Made by a program: the position numbers and the translations under genes
Part shown: one piece after another, positions 2,019 to 48,123 of the stretch
Layout: the number at the start of each line of letters is the position of its first letter
How positions within the stretch are numbered: the stretch's first letter is position 1
NCBI GenBank assembly: GCA_963677485.1
Contig: OY781964.1
Span: forward strand, 64,001-128,000
Source: Armatimonadota bacterium
GTDB lineage: Bacteria; Armatimonadota; HRBIN16
Direction: 5' to 3'
DNA length: 64,000 nucleotides
Notes under the pieces: model-generated
Seen by the model: the letters and a program-made list of their open reading frames with translations, nothing else
Database searches by the model: none
What the model was told of the DNA's origin: nothing

Positions 2019-4112
2019 ATGAAGTCGCTTCAGAAGTTTCTGCAGTCACAACAATCGGGATTGATTCTTGTCATATTCGCCGTCATCACAATACTCAGCC
2101 TGTTTGCAGGCTGGCATATGGATGGCAGCGGGAACAACATCAATAACTTTATGAACCCGAACACCTTAATGCAAACCGCCACCGACACCAGCTTCTTCGC
2201 CATTATGGCGATTGGTGTCACGATGGTCATTTTAACCGGAGGCATCGACCTCTCGGTAGGCTCAATTTACGCGCTATCCGGTGTCGCCATGGCGATGACA
2301 CTCCGAGGCTGCGGGCTCGAGAACGGGCCAGTCGGCCTGCTGACCGGGTTGGCGCTCTGTATCGTCATCGGGCTTGGTGCCGGTATTATCAACGGCCTGA
2401 TGGTGGTCAAACTGAAAGTTCACCCATTCATCATCACCCTGGGCACGATGTGGATATACAGGGGCATCGCCTTTGTCATCAGCAAGGCCGAGAGCATTCT
2501 TGTTCCCAACGCAGTCACCGCAATCATCAAAAGCAACTTTGGTTTGTCAGGGGCCATCTACCCTGTACCACTTTTAATCGTATTAGTATTTGCCATCATA
2601 GGCGAAGTGTTTTTGATGAAGTCTGTTATGGGCCGCAACATTTATGCAGTCGGAGGCAACGAGCAGGCCGCGCGCTACGCGGGTATTCGTGTGGACAAAA
2701 CCCTTGCCACAGTGTATGCCATATCGGGCCTGATGGCTGGTCTGGCCGCGTTCCTCGGCAGCGTGTATTACGGCTCCTCATCATCCAATGACGCCAACGG
2801 ATACGAGCTGTTTGTCATCGCATCTGCAGTCGTTGGTGGTGCCAGCCTGCTGGGTGGTAAAGGTACCGCGGTAGGTGCCGTTCTCGGTGCCTTCTTGATC
2901 GTGTTGATCAGGCAGTCTATCCGCACATTGCACTTTGACCAGAACTACGAAATGATCATCATTGGCCTCGCCATTGTGATCGCCGTGGTCATTGATCAAG
3001 CAAGCCAGGCCTTCCAGAAGCGTCAGTTGGCGATGGCCGTTGACGAAAAGCAGATCGCCAAGTCTAAAAAGCAAGCCATTCTGACAGGTGTGGGTTTGGT
3101 GGTGTTAGTCATCATGATGGTTGGCAACGAGATGGCTCACAAGATGAACTCCGCTGCCAGACCAGAAAGCCTCAAAATCGCCATGATCGCCAAATCAAGC
3201 AGCAACCCGGTATTCCTGAGTGCCCGTGTAGGTGCCGAAGCAGCCGCAGCGGACCTCAGCAAGAAGACCGGTGTGAAAATCACCATAGACTGGCGAACCC
3301 CTAACGTGGAAGACGGTCAGGTCCAGGCAGTGCGTCTGGCACAAGCCGTCAATGAAGGGGCCAATGCAGCCCTGATTAGCTGCTCCGATGCCAGTAAAAT
3401 TACTGGTGCCATCGACGACGCCGTCGCACGTGGCGTGGCCGTGATGACCTTCGACAGTGATGCGCCTAACTCAAAGCGGTTTGCATTCTACGGCACCAAT
3501 GACGCCGATTGCGGTGCCCAAACCATGCGCGAACTTGTTAAGCAGATGAACGGTAAAGGCACCGTAGCGATACTCGGCGGTAACCAGAACGCGCCGAACC
3601 TGCAAGCCCGCGTAAAAGGTGCCCTTGCAGAGGCCAAGAAGTATCCTGGCATCAAGATCGCAGGCGAGTTCTACCACCCCGAGACCCCTCAGGACGCCGC
3701 TGCTGAAGTGGTGCGCGACATGAACGCCTATCCTGACATCACCGGCTGGGCCATGATCGGTGGATGGCCGCTATTCACTAAGACACTGCTCACCGACCTC
3801 GACCCCACGAAGGTCAAAGTGGTTTCAGTCGATGCACTTCCGGCAGAGCTGCCGTACATCATCAAGGACATCGCACCGGTGCTGCTGGCACAACCCACCT
3901 ACCTTTGGGGGTATACCTCGGTCAGCAAGATCGTCGACAAGATGGTCTACAAAAAAGCAGTTCCTGAAATCAACAAAATGGAACTCGTGAAAGTCGATAT
4001 CAGCAATATCGGCACCTGGGCTCGTCAGTTGGAAAAATGGGGATTCACCGACGTACCTCCGGAAATGCTGAAAATGACACCTAATGGCATCATCGACCTA
4101 CCGAAAGAATAA
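2019..4112 (+). CDS. Sugar ABC transporter permease (RbsC-like) fused to periplasmic sugar-binding domain (RbsB-like)
   Basis: N-half has GGIDLSVG, PFIITLGT, GRNIYAVGGNEQAA and GYEL..IASAVVGGASL. C-half has IAMIAK..NPVF and VMTFDSD motifs of Peripla_BP_4 type. RBS AGGAG. Confidence 0.9.
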   Translation: MKSLQKFLQSQQSGLILVIFAVITILSLFAGWHMDGSGNNINNFMNPNTLMQTATDTSFFAIMAIGVTMVILTGGIDLSVGSIYALSGVAMAMTLRGCGLENGPVGLLTGLALCIVIGLGAGIINGLMVVKLKVHPFIITLGTMWIYRGIAFVISKAESILVPNAVTAIIKSNFGLSGAIYPVPLLIVLVFAIIGEVFLMKSVMGRNIYAVGGNEQAARYAGIRVDKTLATVYAISGLMAGLAAFLGSVYYGSSSSNDANGYELFVIASAVVGGASLLGGKGTAVGAVLGAFLIVLIRQSIRTLHFDQNYEMIIIGLAIVIAVVIDQASQAFQKRQLAMAVDEKQIAKSKKQAILTGVGLVVLVIMMVGNEMAHKMNSAARPESLKIAMIAKSSSNPVFLSARVGAEAAAADLSKKTGVKITIDWRTPNVEDGQVQAVRLAQAVNEGANAALISCSDASKITGAIDDAVARGVAVMTFDSDAPNSKRFAFYGTNDADCGAQTMRELVKQMNGKGTVAILGGNQNAPNLQARVKGALAEAKKYPGIKIAGEFYHPETPQDAAAEVVRDMNAYPDITGWAMIGGWPLFTKTLLTDLDPTKVKVVSVDALPAELPYIIKDIAPVLLAQPTYLWGYTSVSKIVDKMVYKKAVPEINKMELVKVDISNIGTWARQLEKWGFTDVPPEMLKMTPNGIIDLPKE

Positions 4113-4123
4113 GGGGGTTCGGA

Positions 4124-5626
4124 ATGAAAAACAACACGAAATCCCCTATTGTGGAGTTCGTCAAGGTCAACAAGCGGTTCCCTGGTGTTCACGCCTTGAA
4201 GGATGTTTGCCTAAGCATTAAAACAGGCAGCATCCATGGCTTGATGGGTGAAAATGGGGCAGGAAAAAGCACGCTGGGAAAGGCACTAGCTGGTATCCAC
4301 GCCATAGATGATGGTCAGATACTCATCGATGGCAAACCGGCCAGTATCGTGGATCCCAACAGCGCGATGGAATATGGCATCGCGATGGTGCATCAGGAGC
4401 TGGCCTTCTGCGAGAACTTGAGTGTGGCCGAGAATCTATGCCTGGGACAGTTGCCGCTCAAAGGCCACTTCGTCGACAGCGACAAGATGCGGGCGACCGC
4501 TCAGACCATGCTGGACAGCATCGGCTTCAAAGTCGATCTGGATCGGCAAATGGGCGCACTCACTGTAGGGCAGCAGCAAATGGTGCAGATCGCCTCGGCG
4601 GTCAGCCGAGGTGCCAGGGTGCTGGTGTTTGATGAGCCGACCAGCTCACTGTCCGAGCCTGATGCCGAACGGCTGTTTGCGCTAATCAAGCAGCTACAGA
4701 CCAAAGGCGTCACCAGCATCTACGTATCGCATCGCATGGCTGAGGTATTCAAGCTGTGCGATGACATCTCCGTTCTGCGCGATGGCGAACACGTCGCTAC
4801 CAAGGCTGCCAGTGAACTCGATGAACACAGTCTGGTCGGTTTGATGATCGGCCGCGAGTTGAACGTCTACGAATCCCAATCGGCTATTCAGCCACTTGGT
4901 GAAGAGGCCCTCCGAGTGGAAGGGCTCTGCCTGCCTGGCAAGTTTCAGGATGTCAGCTTCAGCTTGAAGCGTGGCGAAATACTGGGGTTCGCCGGTCTGG
5001 TGGGCTCGGGCCGCACAGAAATCGCAGAGGTGCTGTTCGGGCTGCATCCTGAGGCCACAGGCAAGTTATGGCTCAATGGGAAGCCCCATTCGCTGCCAGA
5101 GTCCGTTCAGCAGGCACGTGAATTAGGCCTGGGCCTCGCCCCTGAGGACCGTAAGCGTCACGGTCTGATACTGGGGATGAGCTGCAGGTCTAATATCACC
5201 CTACCGATCCTTGCCTCCCTGTCCAACAACGGTTGGGTAGATGACGAGAAGGAAAAGAAGGTATCCGGGAGTTACTTCGAAAAGATGCAGGTGAAGGCCC
5301 CCAACATGGAGGTTCTGGCCGGCAGCCTTTCTGGCGGCAACCAGCAGAAGCTGGTGATTGCCCGCTGGCTGGCAGCCAACTGCGGTCTGTTGATCGTGGA
5401 TGAGCCCACCCGTGGGGTGGATGTGGGAGCCAAGGCTGAAATCCACGGCCTGCTTGATCAGTTGGCGTGCTCAGGATCGGGGATTATGCTCATCTCCAGC
5501 GAACTGCCGGAGCTGCTCATGCTCTCTCACCGCGTGGTCGTGATGCGCGAAGGTAAGATGATGGGCATCTTGACACGGGAGCAGGCGACTCAGGACGCCA
5601 TCCTGCGCCTGATGACCGGCGTGTAA
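4124..5626 (+). CDS. Sugar ABC transporter ATP-binding protein (RbsA/MglA-like, two NBDs)
   Basis: GENGAGKST, DEPTSSL, LSGGNQQK and DEPTRGVDVGAK motifs. Confidence 0.95.
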   Translation: MKNNTKSPIVEFVKVNKRFPGVHALKDVCLSIKTGSIHGLMGENGAGKSTLGKALAGIHAIDDGQILIDGKPASIVDPNSAMEYGIAMVHQELAFCENLSVAENLCLGQLPLKGHFVDSDKMRATAQTMLDSIGFKVDLDRQMGALTVGQQQMVQIASAVSRGARVLVFDEPTSSLSEPDAERLFALIKQLQTKGVTSIYVSHRMAEVFKLCDDISVLRDGEHVATKAASELDEHSLVGLMIGRELNVYESQSAIQPLGEEALRVEGLCLPGKFQDVSFSLKRGEILGFAGLVGSGRTEIAEVLFGLHPEATGKLWLNGKPHSLPESVQQARELGLGLAPEDRKRHGLILGMSCRSNITLPILASLSNNGWVDDEKEKKVSGSYFEKMQVKAPNMEVLAGSLSGGNQQKLVIARWLAANCGLLIVDEPTRGVDVGAKAEIHGLLDQLACSGSGIMLISSELPELLMLSHRVVVMREGKMMGILTREQATQDAILRLMTGV

Positions 5627-45392: not shown

Positions 45393-45418
45393 CTTCAGCC
45401 AGCACTCGCTGCTAAGAC

Positions 45419-46160
45419 ATAGGGGTAGGGAGAACTTTCGTTCCCCCTCCCTCCGAACCGTGCGTGCGGTTCTCCCGCACACGGCTCTCCAGTTGGTAGT
45501 GTTACCTCATTTGAGGATTGGTGATTCTTTGCACAGGATGTTTGTAGTGTAAACACCTATACTCAGCATTGAAGGCGACAGCCTTCTTTGCCCCCATATG
45601 ATGGGGCACCAACATCCGATTTGTCCAGTCCACCGATGGCTGAGCAGTCGCCTGCTAGTTGTTTCCGCTTGTTTAGCCTTTTTTTAGGCACTTCTCGCGC
45701 GGAGCTATATTCGGTGGCTGAGACTTCACGGATCTACCTTCCTGCGCTCCCTTGGCTCCACATCCATTACAGACGCTTCAACGCTACTATGGGCGCTCTG
45801 ACTTCTGCCTGCAACGAACTTACTATCGCCACTACTGCAGGCAGATCTCCCTGCTTCACTTACGCGACCTCTTGTGACCATTCCATCCCCAAGCACCTCG
45901 CAACCCCCATCACTGCTCTATACGCTCACTCTCAAGCATAACAGGCACTGTTTTCACAGCACAAACTTCACCATTCCTACGCTGGCTCGTTGGTTCTACG
46001 CGGCCGAAACGGGTTCGTTATCCTACGGACTGGTCACTCGCCAACAGTTGCTCTCCACCCCACCTCGCGGTGACGCAGTTACTGCCGACTACAAGGCCAG
46101 AGTTGGCGTGGCCTCGAAGAGGAATTGCACCTCTTTGTTCGCGTACGCTTGCAGGCGCAC
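45419..46160 (-). mobile_element. ORF-less group II intron (742 nt)
   Basis: 5' GTGCGCC; D5 GAGCCGTGTGCGGGAGAACCGCACGCACGGTTC; D6 ending CCCCTAT; D4 reduced to ~220 nt with a decayed IEP C-terminal remnant. Confidence 0.9.
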
Positions 46161-48008
46161 ATAGGGGTAGGGAGAGCTTTCGCTCCCCCTCCCTCCGAAC
46201 CGTGCGTGCGGTTCTCCCGCACACGGCTCTCCAGTTGGTAGTATTACCTTTCTAAGGATTGGCGATACTTCTCACAAGCTGTATGTAGTGAAAACAGCCC
46301 GTGATGCTCAAAGAAGGCGTTCGGCCATATGTTGTGGTCAATTCCACGACCTACACCGCGGCGTCCGTCACGACCACGTAATATACTACGTAACCGCATA
46401 CGTATCCATCCATCCAAGTCCCTAAATATACGACCATCGCAGTATTTGAAGTATCCAAACCAGCCTCTGGTGCTCATGTTTAAGTCATGGATGATGGCCT
46501 GCAGGCTGCGGCCATTTGCGCGTGGGGTCTTTTCGCGGATCGTATCCTTTAGCTTCTTGAGGCTCTTGTCACGAACATTCAGGTATTTACCTTTTTCGAA
46601 ACGAAAGCCCAAGAACTCAAAGGGCTCGATCAGAGCGTCTACGATCCGAGTCTTTACCGGGTGAAGGGTAAGACCAGCTCTTGTCGTCCAGTCTCCCAAC
46701 TTCTGCAAGGCTGCCTCAGCATCTTCCTGGCTTTTGCACAATATCACCAGATCATCGGCGTACCGAACCATCTCTATACCCAGCTCTTCCATCATATGGT
46801 CAAGTGGGTCTAGATAGATATTCGCCAGCAGTGGACTTATCACTGCCCCCTGCGGCGTCCCTTCATCAGGACGCCATTCTGCCACGGTGTCGATAACCCC
46901 CTGGCCTAAGTATGACTTCAGTAAAGACAACACCTTACCATCAGACACCTTGCTCTCCACGAGTGAGAGCAGAGCTGCATGGGGTATCGTGTCAAAGTAG
47001 CTCCTAATGTCAGCATCTACAACGTAGGTGTAACCCTGTTCTAGTAGTGCTGACACACGGCCGATGGCGTGATGGCAACCTAACCCCGGACGGAAACCAT
47101 AACTCCTGTCGGAGAAGTCCCGCTCGAAGATCGGCTCAAGCACGTTCCTCAGTGCCGTTTGAACTACCCTGTCTCTGACTGTAGGTATCCCAAGTGGTCG
47201 CTTTTCTTTGCTTCCGGGCTTGGGTATCCATACTCGCAGTATCGATTGGGGGTAATAGATACCCTCAATCAGCCATGTATGTATCTCTTGAAGATTGGCC
47301 TCAAGATGTTTCCCGAAATGAGCCACACTCTGGTGGTCTACACCGGCACTACCCTTATTTGCTTTCACTCGCGTGAAGGCATCCATCAGGTTTTGCATGG
47401 AGCAGACCTTGTCCATCAGGCTATACCATTTACCTCCATTGACCCCCTCGTCGAGGGCAGCCAACATTCGCCTCGTCCAGACAGCCGGTAGCATAACAGG
47501 GTCAGTGCTTGCTGCTCCCGCGTGGTTAGTCCCTCTAGACACTAGCGCGGGTAACTGTTCCTTTATCTTCACTTGGCGAATCTACCTTCCTGCGCTCCCT
47601 TGGCTCCACATCCATTACAGACGCTTCAACGCTACTATGGGCGCTCTGACTTCTGCCTGCAACGAACTTATTATCGCCACTACTGCAGGCAGATCTCCCT
47701 GCTTCACTTACGCGACCTCTTGTGACCATTCCATCCCCAAGCACCTCGCAACCCCCATCACTGCTCTATACGCTCACTCTCAAGCATGACAGGCACTGTT
47801 TTCACAGCACAAACTTCGCCATTCCTACGCAGGCTCGTTGGTTCTACGCGGCCGAAACGGGTTTGTTATTCTACGGACTGGTCACTCGCCAACAGTTGCT
47901 CTCCACCCCACCTCGCGGTGACGCAGTTACTGCCGACTACAAGGCCAGAGTTGGCGTGGCCTCGAAGAGGAATTGCACCTCTTTGTTCGCGTACGCTTGC
48001 AGGCGCAC
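46161..48008 (-). mobile_element. Full-length group II intron (1848 nt) with RT/maturase
   Basis: 5' GTGCGCC at 48008; identical D5; 3' CCCCTAT at 46161; IEP in D4. Confidence 0.95.
46244..47572 (-). CDS. ltrA: Group II intron reverse transcriptase/maturase (no endonuclease domain)
   Basis: GSAGVD, RPLGIPTVRDR, SYGFRPG, GTPQGAVISPLLANIYL, RYADD, FLGF, X-domain GWFGYF. Confidence 0.95.
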   Translation of the reverse strand: MKIKEQLPALVSRGTNHAGAASTDPVMLPAVWTRRMLAALDEGVNGGKWYSLMDKVCSMQNLMDAFTRVKANKGSAGVDHQSVAHFGKHLEANLQEIHTWLIEGIYYPQSILRVWIPKPGSKEKRPLGIPTVRDRVVQTALRNVLEPIFERDFSDRSYGFRPGLGCHHAIGRVSALLEQGYTYVVDADIRSYFDTIPHAALLSLVESKVSDGKVLSLLKSYLGQGVIDTVAEWRPDEGTPQGAVISPLLANIYLDPLDHMMEELGIEMVRYADDLVILCKSQEDAEAALQKLGDWTTRAGLTLHPVKTRIVDALIEPFEFLGFRFEKGKYLNVRDKSLKKLKDTIREKTPRANGRSLQAIIHDLNMSTRGWFGYFKYCDGRIFRDLDGWIRMRLRSILRGRDGRRGVGRGIDHNIWPNAFFEHHGLFSLHTACEKYRQSLER

Positions 48009-48123
48009 GTAGGGGTGCCCCTTGTGGGCACCCTAATCGTTGCCGGTCATCGATATTGTGTCGGCTATATCGCCCATTCAACGGTTGACATTGTGCTAGG
48101 GTGCCTACAAGAGACGCCCTTAC
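48009..48123. repeat. Inverted pair of GTAG-type REPs (intron insertion site)
   Basis: GTAGGGGTGCCCCTTGTGGGCACCCTA at 48009-48035 and a degenerate inverted copy at 48097-48123. Confidence 0.8.

Follow-up and report, generated by a model that had tools for sequence, protein, structure and literature searches.

Two group II introns of one family lie head to tail, without a spacer, in a 64,000-nt stretch of an Armatimonadota genome (contig OY781964.1; this whole stretch is the window, and its positions are used as coordinates), and the upstream intron was probably inserted between a repetitive extragenic palindromic (REP) hairpin and the first base of an intron that already occupied this hairpin. 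All window features described here are on the minus strand. In the order of that strand, a REP-like hairpin with CTAC (48040-48009) is followed by intron A, intron C, and an exon resuming with G. Intron A ends at 46161 and intron C starts at 46160, the junction being ...CCCTACCCCTAT|GTGCGCC, and GTGCGCC is the 5' start of both units (48008 and 46160). Matches to RF00029, the Rfam model of domains V and VI (D5 and D6), ended exactly at 46161 and 45419 with scores (Table 1) above the gathering score of 40. Both 3' ends read TAT, with a bulged A located 8 nt from each end, and D5 reads GAGCCGUGUGCGG-GAGAA-CCGCACGCACGGUUC with an AGC triad. The GTGCG starts, the D5/D6 3' ends, the bulged A, the encoded reverse transcriptase (RT)/maturase, and the pairing of exon-binding sites (EBS) 1 and 3 identify both units as mobile group II introns. 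The coordinates, motifs (including the GUAGG positions and the AGC triad), and zero-spacer junction given by the first-pass annotation of the window all held.

The two units represent different variants. Introns A and C were 97.9% identical over nt 1-438 and 89% identical over the last 137 nt, and their middle parts were unrelated, which indicates that intron C is not a simple deletion of intron A. Their D5-D6 regions differed by one compensatory pair, located in D6 (G-C in one and A-T in the other). The features of the locus are summarized in Table 1.

Table 1. Features of the tandem intron locus, with window positions (IBS, intron-binding site; IEP, intron-encoded protein; ORF, open reading frame)
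Feature	Position	Strand	Basis
REP-like target hairpin of the 5' exon, GGGTGCCC-ACAAG-GGGCACCC	48013..48033	-	DNA fold; plus strand reads GTAG + palindrome
IBS1 CCTAC, final 5 nt of the 5' exon	48009..48013	-	Complementary to EBS1 GUAGG; same 5 nt before copies B, D, and E
Intron A, full-length group II intron, 1848 nt	46161..48008	-	5' GTGCG; RF00029 58.1 bits at 3' end
EBS1 GUAGG of intron A (intron nt 181-185), in an 11-nt terminal loop	47824..47828	-	Covariation with exon -5..-1; paired stem
EBS3 C of intron A (intron nt 268)	47741..47741	-	Alignment column pairing with 3' exon +1
IEP ORF, RT + maturase (X), YADD	46244..47572	-	Pfam, TIGR04416
D5 of intron A, with an AGC triad and a 4-bp distal stem capped by the 5-nt loop GAGAA	46197..46229	-	RF00029 alignment
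3'-terminal part of intron A: domain VI with bulged A (46168) and terminal CCCCTAT	46161..46196	-	RF00029 alignment; DNA fold -10.9 kcal/mol
Intron C, ORF-less group II intron, 742 nt, directly after intron A	45419..46160	-	RF00029 58.7 bits
EBS1 GUAGG of intron C	45976..45980	-	Alignment frame as in intron A
EBS3 C of intron C	45893..45893	-	Alignment column as in intron A
IBS3 G, first base of the 3' exon	45418..45418	-	G after all five copies; pairs with EBS3 = C

The genome is a single 5.22-Mb contig carrying five copies of the intron (A-E), each with distinct unique flanks. Copy B is full-length and 99.95% identical to A, copy E is of the C type and 99.7% identical to C, and copy D is of the C type with a 1.66-kb insertion sequence (IS) in domain IV. 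This IS (G000:C1:824514-826175) contains a 518-aa transposase ORF and occurs in 22 genome copies with approximately 99.2% identity. All four non-tandem copies sit behind a perfect or near-perfect hairpin followed by (C)CCTAC, and the fifth, intron C, is preceded by D6 of intron A and CCCCTAT. The 3' exon starts with G at all five, giving the shared pattern hairpin-CCTAY|G. The flanks thus bore out the first-pass prediction that every 5' exon would end in REP-CCCCTAC or intron-CCCCTAT.

The four target hairpins have different arms (GGGTGCCC/GGGCACCC, GGGCTGGG/CCCAGCCC, GGATGGGC/GCCCATCC, and GGGCGCCC/GGACGCCC), each with CTAC next to it, so the arms differ among sites used by one and the same intron. 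In the window, the 5' exon folded as DNA into an 8-bp hairpin with a 5-nt loop followed by CTAC (-10.5 kcal/mol, z -4.5, with 0 of 200 shuffles as good), and the first C of IBS1 doubles as the final base of the hairpin. Because such a hairpin precedes only 226 (13.8%) of the 1636 CCTACG sites in the genome, the hairpin matters beyond the 6-mer; if it were irrelevant, the probability of finding all four insertions at hairpins would be approximately 4e-4.

These hairpins belong to an abundant repeat family. Perfect hairpins of at least 7 bp directly before CTAC numbered 215 in the genome, compared with 15-50 for most control tetramers that were as common as CTAC or commoner; the exceptions were the overlapping word CCTA and T-rich terminator tails. 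When up to one mismatch was allowed, 464 hairpin+CTAC elements were found, 226 of which had the form hairpin...C-CTAC-G. An initial scan permitting G-T pairs and one mismatch at 7 bp was too permissive, yielded no enrichment, and was replaced by these stricter scans. The opposite strand of the elements reads GTAG followed by a palindrome, and 75 of 118 close neighbour pairs were inverted. The same family was present in G001, a genome of the same genus that lacks the intron. Abundant palindromes with a conserved GTAG end are characteristic of REPs, and the elements targeted by the intron can be classified as GTAG-type REP hairpins on these grounds, in agreement with the first-pass proposal that GTAG-REPs serve as the target. 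The alternative that they are intrinsic terminators was rejected for this genome, as they have no T-run and are members of the GTAG repeat family.

Three genes for Y1 transposases (PF01797) were found in the genome (G000:C1:376078-376404, 2992049-2992381, and 4121913-4122239). The gene at 2992049-2992381 lies between inverted hairpin-CTAC repeats that have a TAAA loop and form a different REP subfamily, and it looks like a REP-associated tyrosine transposase (RAYT) gene with a REP subfamily of its own. The other two had no flanking inverted hairpin-CTAC elements under the criteria used, and the link between a RAYT and the REP family is therefore only partly shown.

Insertion at REPs has precedents. 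REP-targeting insertion sequences are known, and Tobes and Pareja listed a group II intron of P. putida KT2440 with two of its nine copies at REPs (PMC1525189). That table entry, the only literature record combining REPs and group II introns that we found, describes a partial association and gives no recognition rule. By contrast, all four independent sites in the present genome are REPs, and a defined pairing rule, CCTAC|G, corresponds to the complement of the GTAG end of the REP.

To define the exon-binding sites, we used 80 loci encoding homologues of the IEP (50-61% identity), taken from 580 confirmed hits in species-representative genomes. These relatives were mostly from Acidobacteriota, Planctomycetota, and Verrucomicrobiota, and their intron ends were mapped by nhmmer. 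The alignment contained a conserved frame, CGAGCC-UGC-NNNNN-AAU-GGCGAAG, in which NNNNN corresponds to intron nt 181-185 and is GUAGG in the window. In 45 of 47 loci, this word paired with exon positions -5 to -1 at four or more of the five positions; pairing was complete in 39 loci, and 29 different words were in use. When exons were permuted among loci, the same level of pairing was reached in a mean of 11.4 and a maximum of 20 loci. The flanking two-helix stem was 98.3% paired, with compensatory changes in five of its six pairs; none of 500 shuffles reached the observed pairing, and slid controls were 6-47% paired. Since it covaries with the exon and is carried by a compensated stem, GUAGG can be assigned as the true EBS1, as the first-pass annotation had proposed; it is presented in the 11-nt terminal loop of a D1 stem-loop. 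The minimum free energy fold of the 5' 449 nt (z = -1.9) also placed GUAGG in a hairpin loop; it is unreliable alone and was superseded by the covariation.

To locate EBS3, each D1 column was compared with exon position +1, the base that opens the 3' exon, for complementarity. A Watson-Crick pair with this base was formed by column 268 in 43 of 46 introns, with all four bases in use, and the next-best columns were an invariant G reaching approximately 72-75%. EBS3 is C in both window introns, opposite an exon G, whereas the 48 relatives had G in 39, U in 5, A in 4, and C in none. We found no EBS2: the best D1 bin complementary to exon positions -13 to -6 accounted for 5 of 47 loci, compared with 32 of 47 for EBS1. 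Hairpins of at least 7 bp ending no more than 6 nt from the insertion site were present at 35 of 48 relatives, compared with 112 of 2185 control windows (5%). At five loci (L004, L005, L021, L027, and L035), the 3' exon also contained a second small GC-rich hairpin 5-15 nt past the insertion site, and some targets may be hairpin pairs.

The ORF of intron A comprises 442 codons and encodes RT and maturase (X) domains without an endonuclease domain; the YADD motif is intact. The product matched Pfam RVT_1 (139 bits) and GIIM (54 bits), and TIGR04416 with 373.5 bits against a cut-off of 300. Met36 (ATG at 47467) is probably the true start, because it is invariant across 30 homologues. The window IEP scored 246 bits against GsI-IIC RT and 210 bits against the other of two solved IIC RTs, and 140 bits against CL and ML proteins.

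We next compared the lineage with known intron classes. Group IIC introns lack an endonuclease and EBS2, use a short EBS1-IBS1 and an EBS3-IBS3 pair, and insert after DNA hairpins outside genes (PMC1702495, PMC4424553); all of these properties, including insertion a few nucleotides after the hairpin, are shared by the present introns. However, the RNA criteria for IIC introns are a CGC triad, a distal D5 stem shortened by 2 bp, and an EBS1 of 3-4 bp (Toor et al., 2006, PMC1702495), whereas both window introns and the relatives listed have an AGC triad and an unshortened 4-bp distal D5 stem with a 5-nt loop, EBS1 consists of five covarying nucleotides, and the target hairpins in this genome are REPs without a T-run rather than terminators. 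The D5 loop, GAGAA in the window, is conserved as GARAN among the relatives listed. The window introns matched no Rfam D1-D4 family even at E-values up to 1.

One locus, L020 in a Thermoguttaceae metagenome-assembled genome, provided an internal control. There, a classical IIC intron (380-2434) has a CGC-type D5 and matches Rfam group-II-D1D4-3 with 141 bits; its IEP was 38% identical to the window IEP and reached 471 and 355 bits with the two solved IIC RTs. A relative of the window introns (2435-4333) lies directly behind domain VI of this IIC intron, so that the locus is a stack of two different intron classes. Based on the AGC triad, the 5-nt D5 loop, the 5-nt EBS1, and the 38% IEP identity to a bona fide IIC intron, the lineage appears to lie close to class C but, judged by the RNA features tested, outside it, with the IEP compared through bit scores and identity. 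This agrees with the first-pass view of a non-IIC ribozyme with IIC-like targeting.

One reported hallmark of IIE/IIF introns is a D5 loop of 5 nt instead of the usual tetraloop (Nagy et al., 2013, PMC3753933). With these introns the lineage also shares a small IIB-like ribozyme (approximately 550-740 nt without ORF, compared with 742 nt for the ORF-less unit here) and an endonuclease-less IEP. In that description, however, an EBS2-IBS2 pairing is apparent in IIE/IIF introns, and they home to sequence-defined sites, whereas the present lineage has no EBS2 and uses hairpins; D5 thus looks IIE/IIF-like while the EBS2 of these classes is missing. Homing has been ascribed to all lineages except class C, with hairpin-guided insertion being peculiar to class C (Zimmerly and Semper, 2015, PMC4424553). 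More recently, the non-C IEP types g6, U1, and U2, located near C on the tree, were found often just after predicted terminators (Miura et al., 2022, PMC8919778). The account of these types concerns distances to predicted terminators, with no EBS1/EBS3 rules, REP link, or tandems in the part of it devoted to them. Compared by description only, the present lineage may be one of these types, and it may already be among the class members tabulated by Toro (2013) or Miura et al. (2022).

These properties suggest how the tandem could have formed. The locus would consist of two retrohoming products of one intron family from a widespread endonuclease-less lineage, in which IIC-like target choice would operate on an IIE/IIF-like core: a DNA hairpin, five bases read by EBS1, one base read by EBS3, and no EBS2. 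Because EBS1 is GUAGG and EBS3 is C, the target in this genome would be REP hairpin-CCTAC|G, represented by about 226 sites. Every group II intron begins with G. A REP site that is already occupied would therefore keep its hairpin, its IBS1, and, in the resident intron's first base (G1), a cognate IBS3; given that EBS3 is C, it would remain a fully Watson-Crick target. We infer that ORF-less intron C arrived first and full-length intron A second. Reverse splicing by the second ribonucleoprotein would have taken place precisely at the border of the REP and the resident intron, so that A came to lie upstream of C, with G1 probably acting as IBS3 paired with C268. The ORF-less copies would have been mobilized in trans by the protein of A or B. 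The first-pass annotation had argued that both the REP end and the intron's own end remain targets after insertion; validity of the REP junction after insertion and the possibility of stacking were retained in our interpretation, and the emphasis on the intron's own end was not.

Insertion of this kind is known from two experimental systems. In RmInt2, a class D intron of Sinorhizobium, the newcomer inserts between the 5' exon and the resident intron, with EBS3 pairing with G1 (PMC4615759). In EcKTE56.groEL, a IIB1 intron of E. coli, tandems occurred in 22.4% (ΔORF) and 4.2% (full-length) of integrants through a wobble pair between EBS3(U) and IBS3(G), the latter being G1 of the resident intron (PMC12584367). 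The zero-spacer junction between intron end and intron start and an EBS3 able to pair with G are common to these tandems and the one in the window. As presented in the two reports, however, the former were mobility-assay products (few reads for groEL) with EBS3 = U wobble pairing and long sequence-defined homing sites, whereas the tandem described here is fixed in a natural chromosome, has EBS3 = C with full Watson-Crick pairing, uses a hairpin plus 5 nt as target, and consists of two different variants, one full-length and one ORF-less.

To examine tandems elsewhere, we used an 18-nt junction motif composed of the intron end and the intron start, which was found at 65 junctions in 63 metagenome contigs. 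Intron homology was detected on both sides of 43 junctions and on one side of 15, mostly for lack of room. The remaining seven matches (L090, L098, L114, L119, L126, L133, and L140) had no intron homology and were treated as chance matches or other elements. Of the 12 upstream tandem members in which EBS3 could be read, 8 had C or U, bases able to pair with the initial G of the following intron, compared with 5 of 48 non-tandem relatives (Fisher p 1.7e-4), and the EBS1 of upstream members matched their own 5' exon; in L127, for example, both members carried UAGCC behind the exon GGCTA. This combination is the pattern expected of insertion between the exon and a resident intron. Two contigs contained two junctions each, 707 nt apart in L096 (at 166 and 873) and 1847 nt apart in L118 (at 38 and 1885); they represent either arrays of at least three units or circular or collapsed assemblies. 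The junction motif was absent from 400 other genomes of the phylum, which is weak evidence of rarity given that these are mostly fragmented assemblies.

The main competing explanation is the reverse order of arrival, in which A was resident and C was inserted after the 3' end of A, with D6 serving as the hairpin, CCUAU taking the role of IBS1, and the G of the original exon that of IBS3. This corresponds to the first-pass claim that the intron's own 3' end regenerates its target and thereby makes the array. A DNA hairpin is formed by D6 of intron A (-10.9 kcal/mol), with 3 nt separating its extended form from the site, and GUAGG pairs with all five bases of CCUAU if one G-T wobble is allowed. 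EBS1 words able to pair with CCUAU at four or more positions were enriched among downstream tandem members (7 of 34 with a readable EBS1, compared with 1 of 47 non-tandem relatives; p 0.008). Moreover, the downstream EBS1 of L135 (GUAGA) is a match for the intron end but not for the upstream exon, and the relative at L020 follows the D6 hairpin of an unrelated intron; at the sequence level, these two loci show that introns can land behind a D6 hairpin. In the other 27 of the 34 tandems, however, the downstream EBS1 is unable to pair with CCUAU. The 3' end CCCUACCCCUAU was near-invariant among relatives whatever their EBS1, being kept in most of 78, and is therefore best regarded as a class feature rather than an adaptation or mimic tuned to GUAGG, its likeness to CCUAC being a by-product of the EBS1 of this copy. 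In addition, the core D6 hairpin in the centroid fold is bulged and ends 8 nt from the site, compared with 4 nt for REPs, and the target would pair only as a wobble variant, in contrast to the fully cognate REP junction. Downstream insertion also leaves the enrichment of C or U at EBS3 in upstream members unexplained. The claim of a self-regenerating 3' end was thus not upheld as the origin of the array, and we consider downstream insertion of C a real but lesser alternative, rather unlikely at this locus, to the upstream arrival of A.

Formation of the tandem without a second targeting event, either by template switching of the RT between intron RNAs or by recombination of an intron circle into the resident intron, seems improbable. 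Group II intron RTs do switch templates from end to end. The two junctions of L118 are one intron length apart, a spacing that a circle or an array of identical units would produce, and head-to-tail intron circles have been documented (PMC4478347, PMC8266578). In the window, however, the units differ (98% identity at the 5' part, 89% at the 3' part, and different domains IV), which excludes rolling-circle copying of a single molecule; template switching does not provide the exact 5' junction with the REP; and neither process predicts the EBS3 = C/U enrichment in upstream members.

Several observations weigh against the upstream insertion of A. The order of arrival is unreadable at the locus, as the two units do not differ in EBS1 or EBS3 and either route leads to one and the same final sequence. 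One of only five copies is on an occupied site despite approximately 222 free REP targets, which is not what random choice predicts and hints at local re-insertion. Pairing with G1 is not obligatory, since EBS3 was G or A in 4 of the 12 upstream tandem members. The metagenome contigs are short, many being about one intron in length, may be chimeric across repeats, and do not represent independent events; some of their junctions may derive from intron circles rather than genomic tandems. Two genomes of the same genus, G001 and G002, contain the flanking genes and the REP family, but showed no empty or half-filled site. Neither contained a copy of the intron, and its absence from G001 makes it look like a recent arrival in the window genome (G000). 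In G001, a 718-aa ORF lies between the orthologues of the flanking genes instead of the REP and introns (G001:C1:5187738-5190048).

Public reads were also consulted. Five runs contained approximately 0.88 of the words of the window, and four were examined; their Logan contigs were uninformative on the junction, as the contigs break at repeats and none of those listed bridged 46160/46161 by 31 nt. In a contig from one run (X1), the match to the intron breaks off at window position 46083, at a distance of 78 nt from the 5' end of intron C, and gives way to unrelated sequence; this could be a truncated or rearranged copy in that sample. An assembly artefact joining two intron copies from elsewhere in the genome, for which the 438 nt shared at 98% identity, the three further copies, and the breaks in the short-read contigs would speak, is nonetheless very unlikely because the single 5.22-Mb contig resolves all 22 near-identical copies of the 1.66-kb IS, implying reads longer than the 2.6-kb array, and moreover all five intron copies have distinct unique flanks and the junction motif recurs in 63 independent metagenome contigs.

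Hairpin-guided insertion and stacking through EBS3-G1 pairing are already known, and searches of the literature on tandem or head-to-tail introns retrieved, besides the work on intron circles, only the two experimental reports cited above (PMC4615759, PMC12584367). What appears to be new is the rule of hairpin plus five plus one bases on a non-IIC core, the use of REPs as a systematic target, an EBS3 = C that would make self-stacking fully cognate, and the class-wide link between EBS3 and natural tandems. The lineage is large, with at least 580 hits in species-representative genomes and thousands of proteins. As a tentative generalization, it may represent a widespread undescribed class combining an IIE/IIF-type core with IIC-type targeting, in which EBS3 decides whether a site stays open, lineages with C or U build arrays on REP safe harbours, and a GUAGN EBS1 adds a self-made site at the 3' end.

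The hairpin strategy would thus also run on a different ribozyme core, with pairing rules that can be read from covariation. The locus offers a natural, chromosome-fixed case of EBS3-G1 stacking, which has so far come mainly from over-expression assays, and the metagenome data add a class-wide signal that EBS3 identity predicts stacking. The 6-nt-plus-hairpin rule could help in retargeting compact introns. As Rfam has no D1-D4 model for the lineage, annotation pipelines will see only D5/D6 of its members.

Two further observations concern introns outside the window. At L062 (323-645; Limisphaerales), D1 homology lies approximately 2.4 kb upstream of the IEP instead of approximately 0.45 kb, which suggests an insertion inside this intron. 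The Armatimonadota genome also encodes a second, unrelated group II intron RT (G000:C1:2650154-2652832, minus strand), 34-44% identical to the window IEP, and this gene is split in two by another copy of the 1.66-kb IS.

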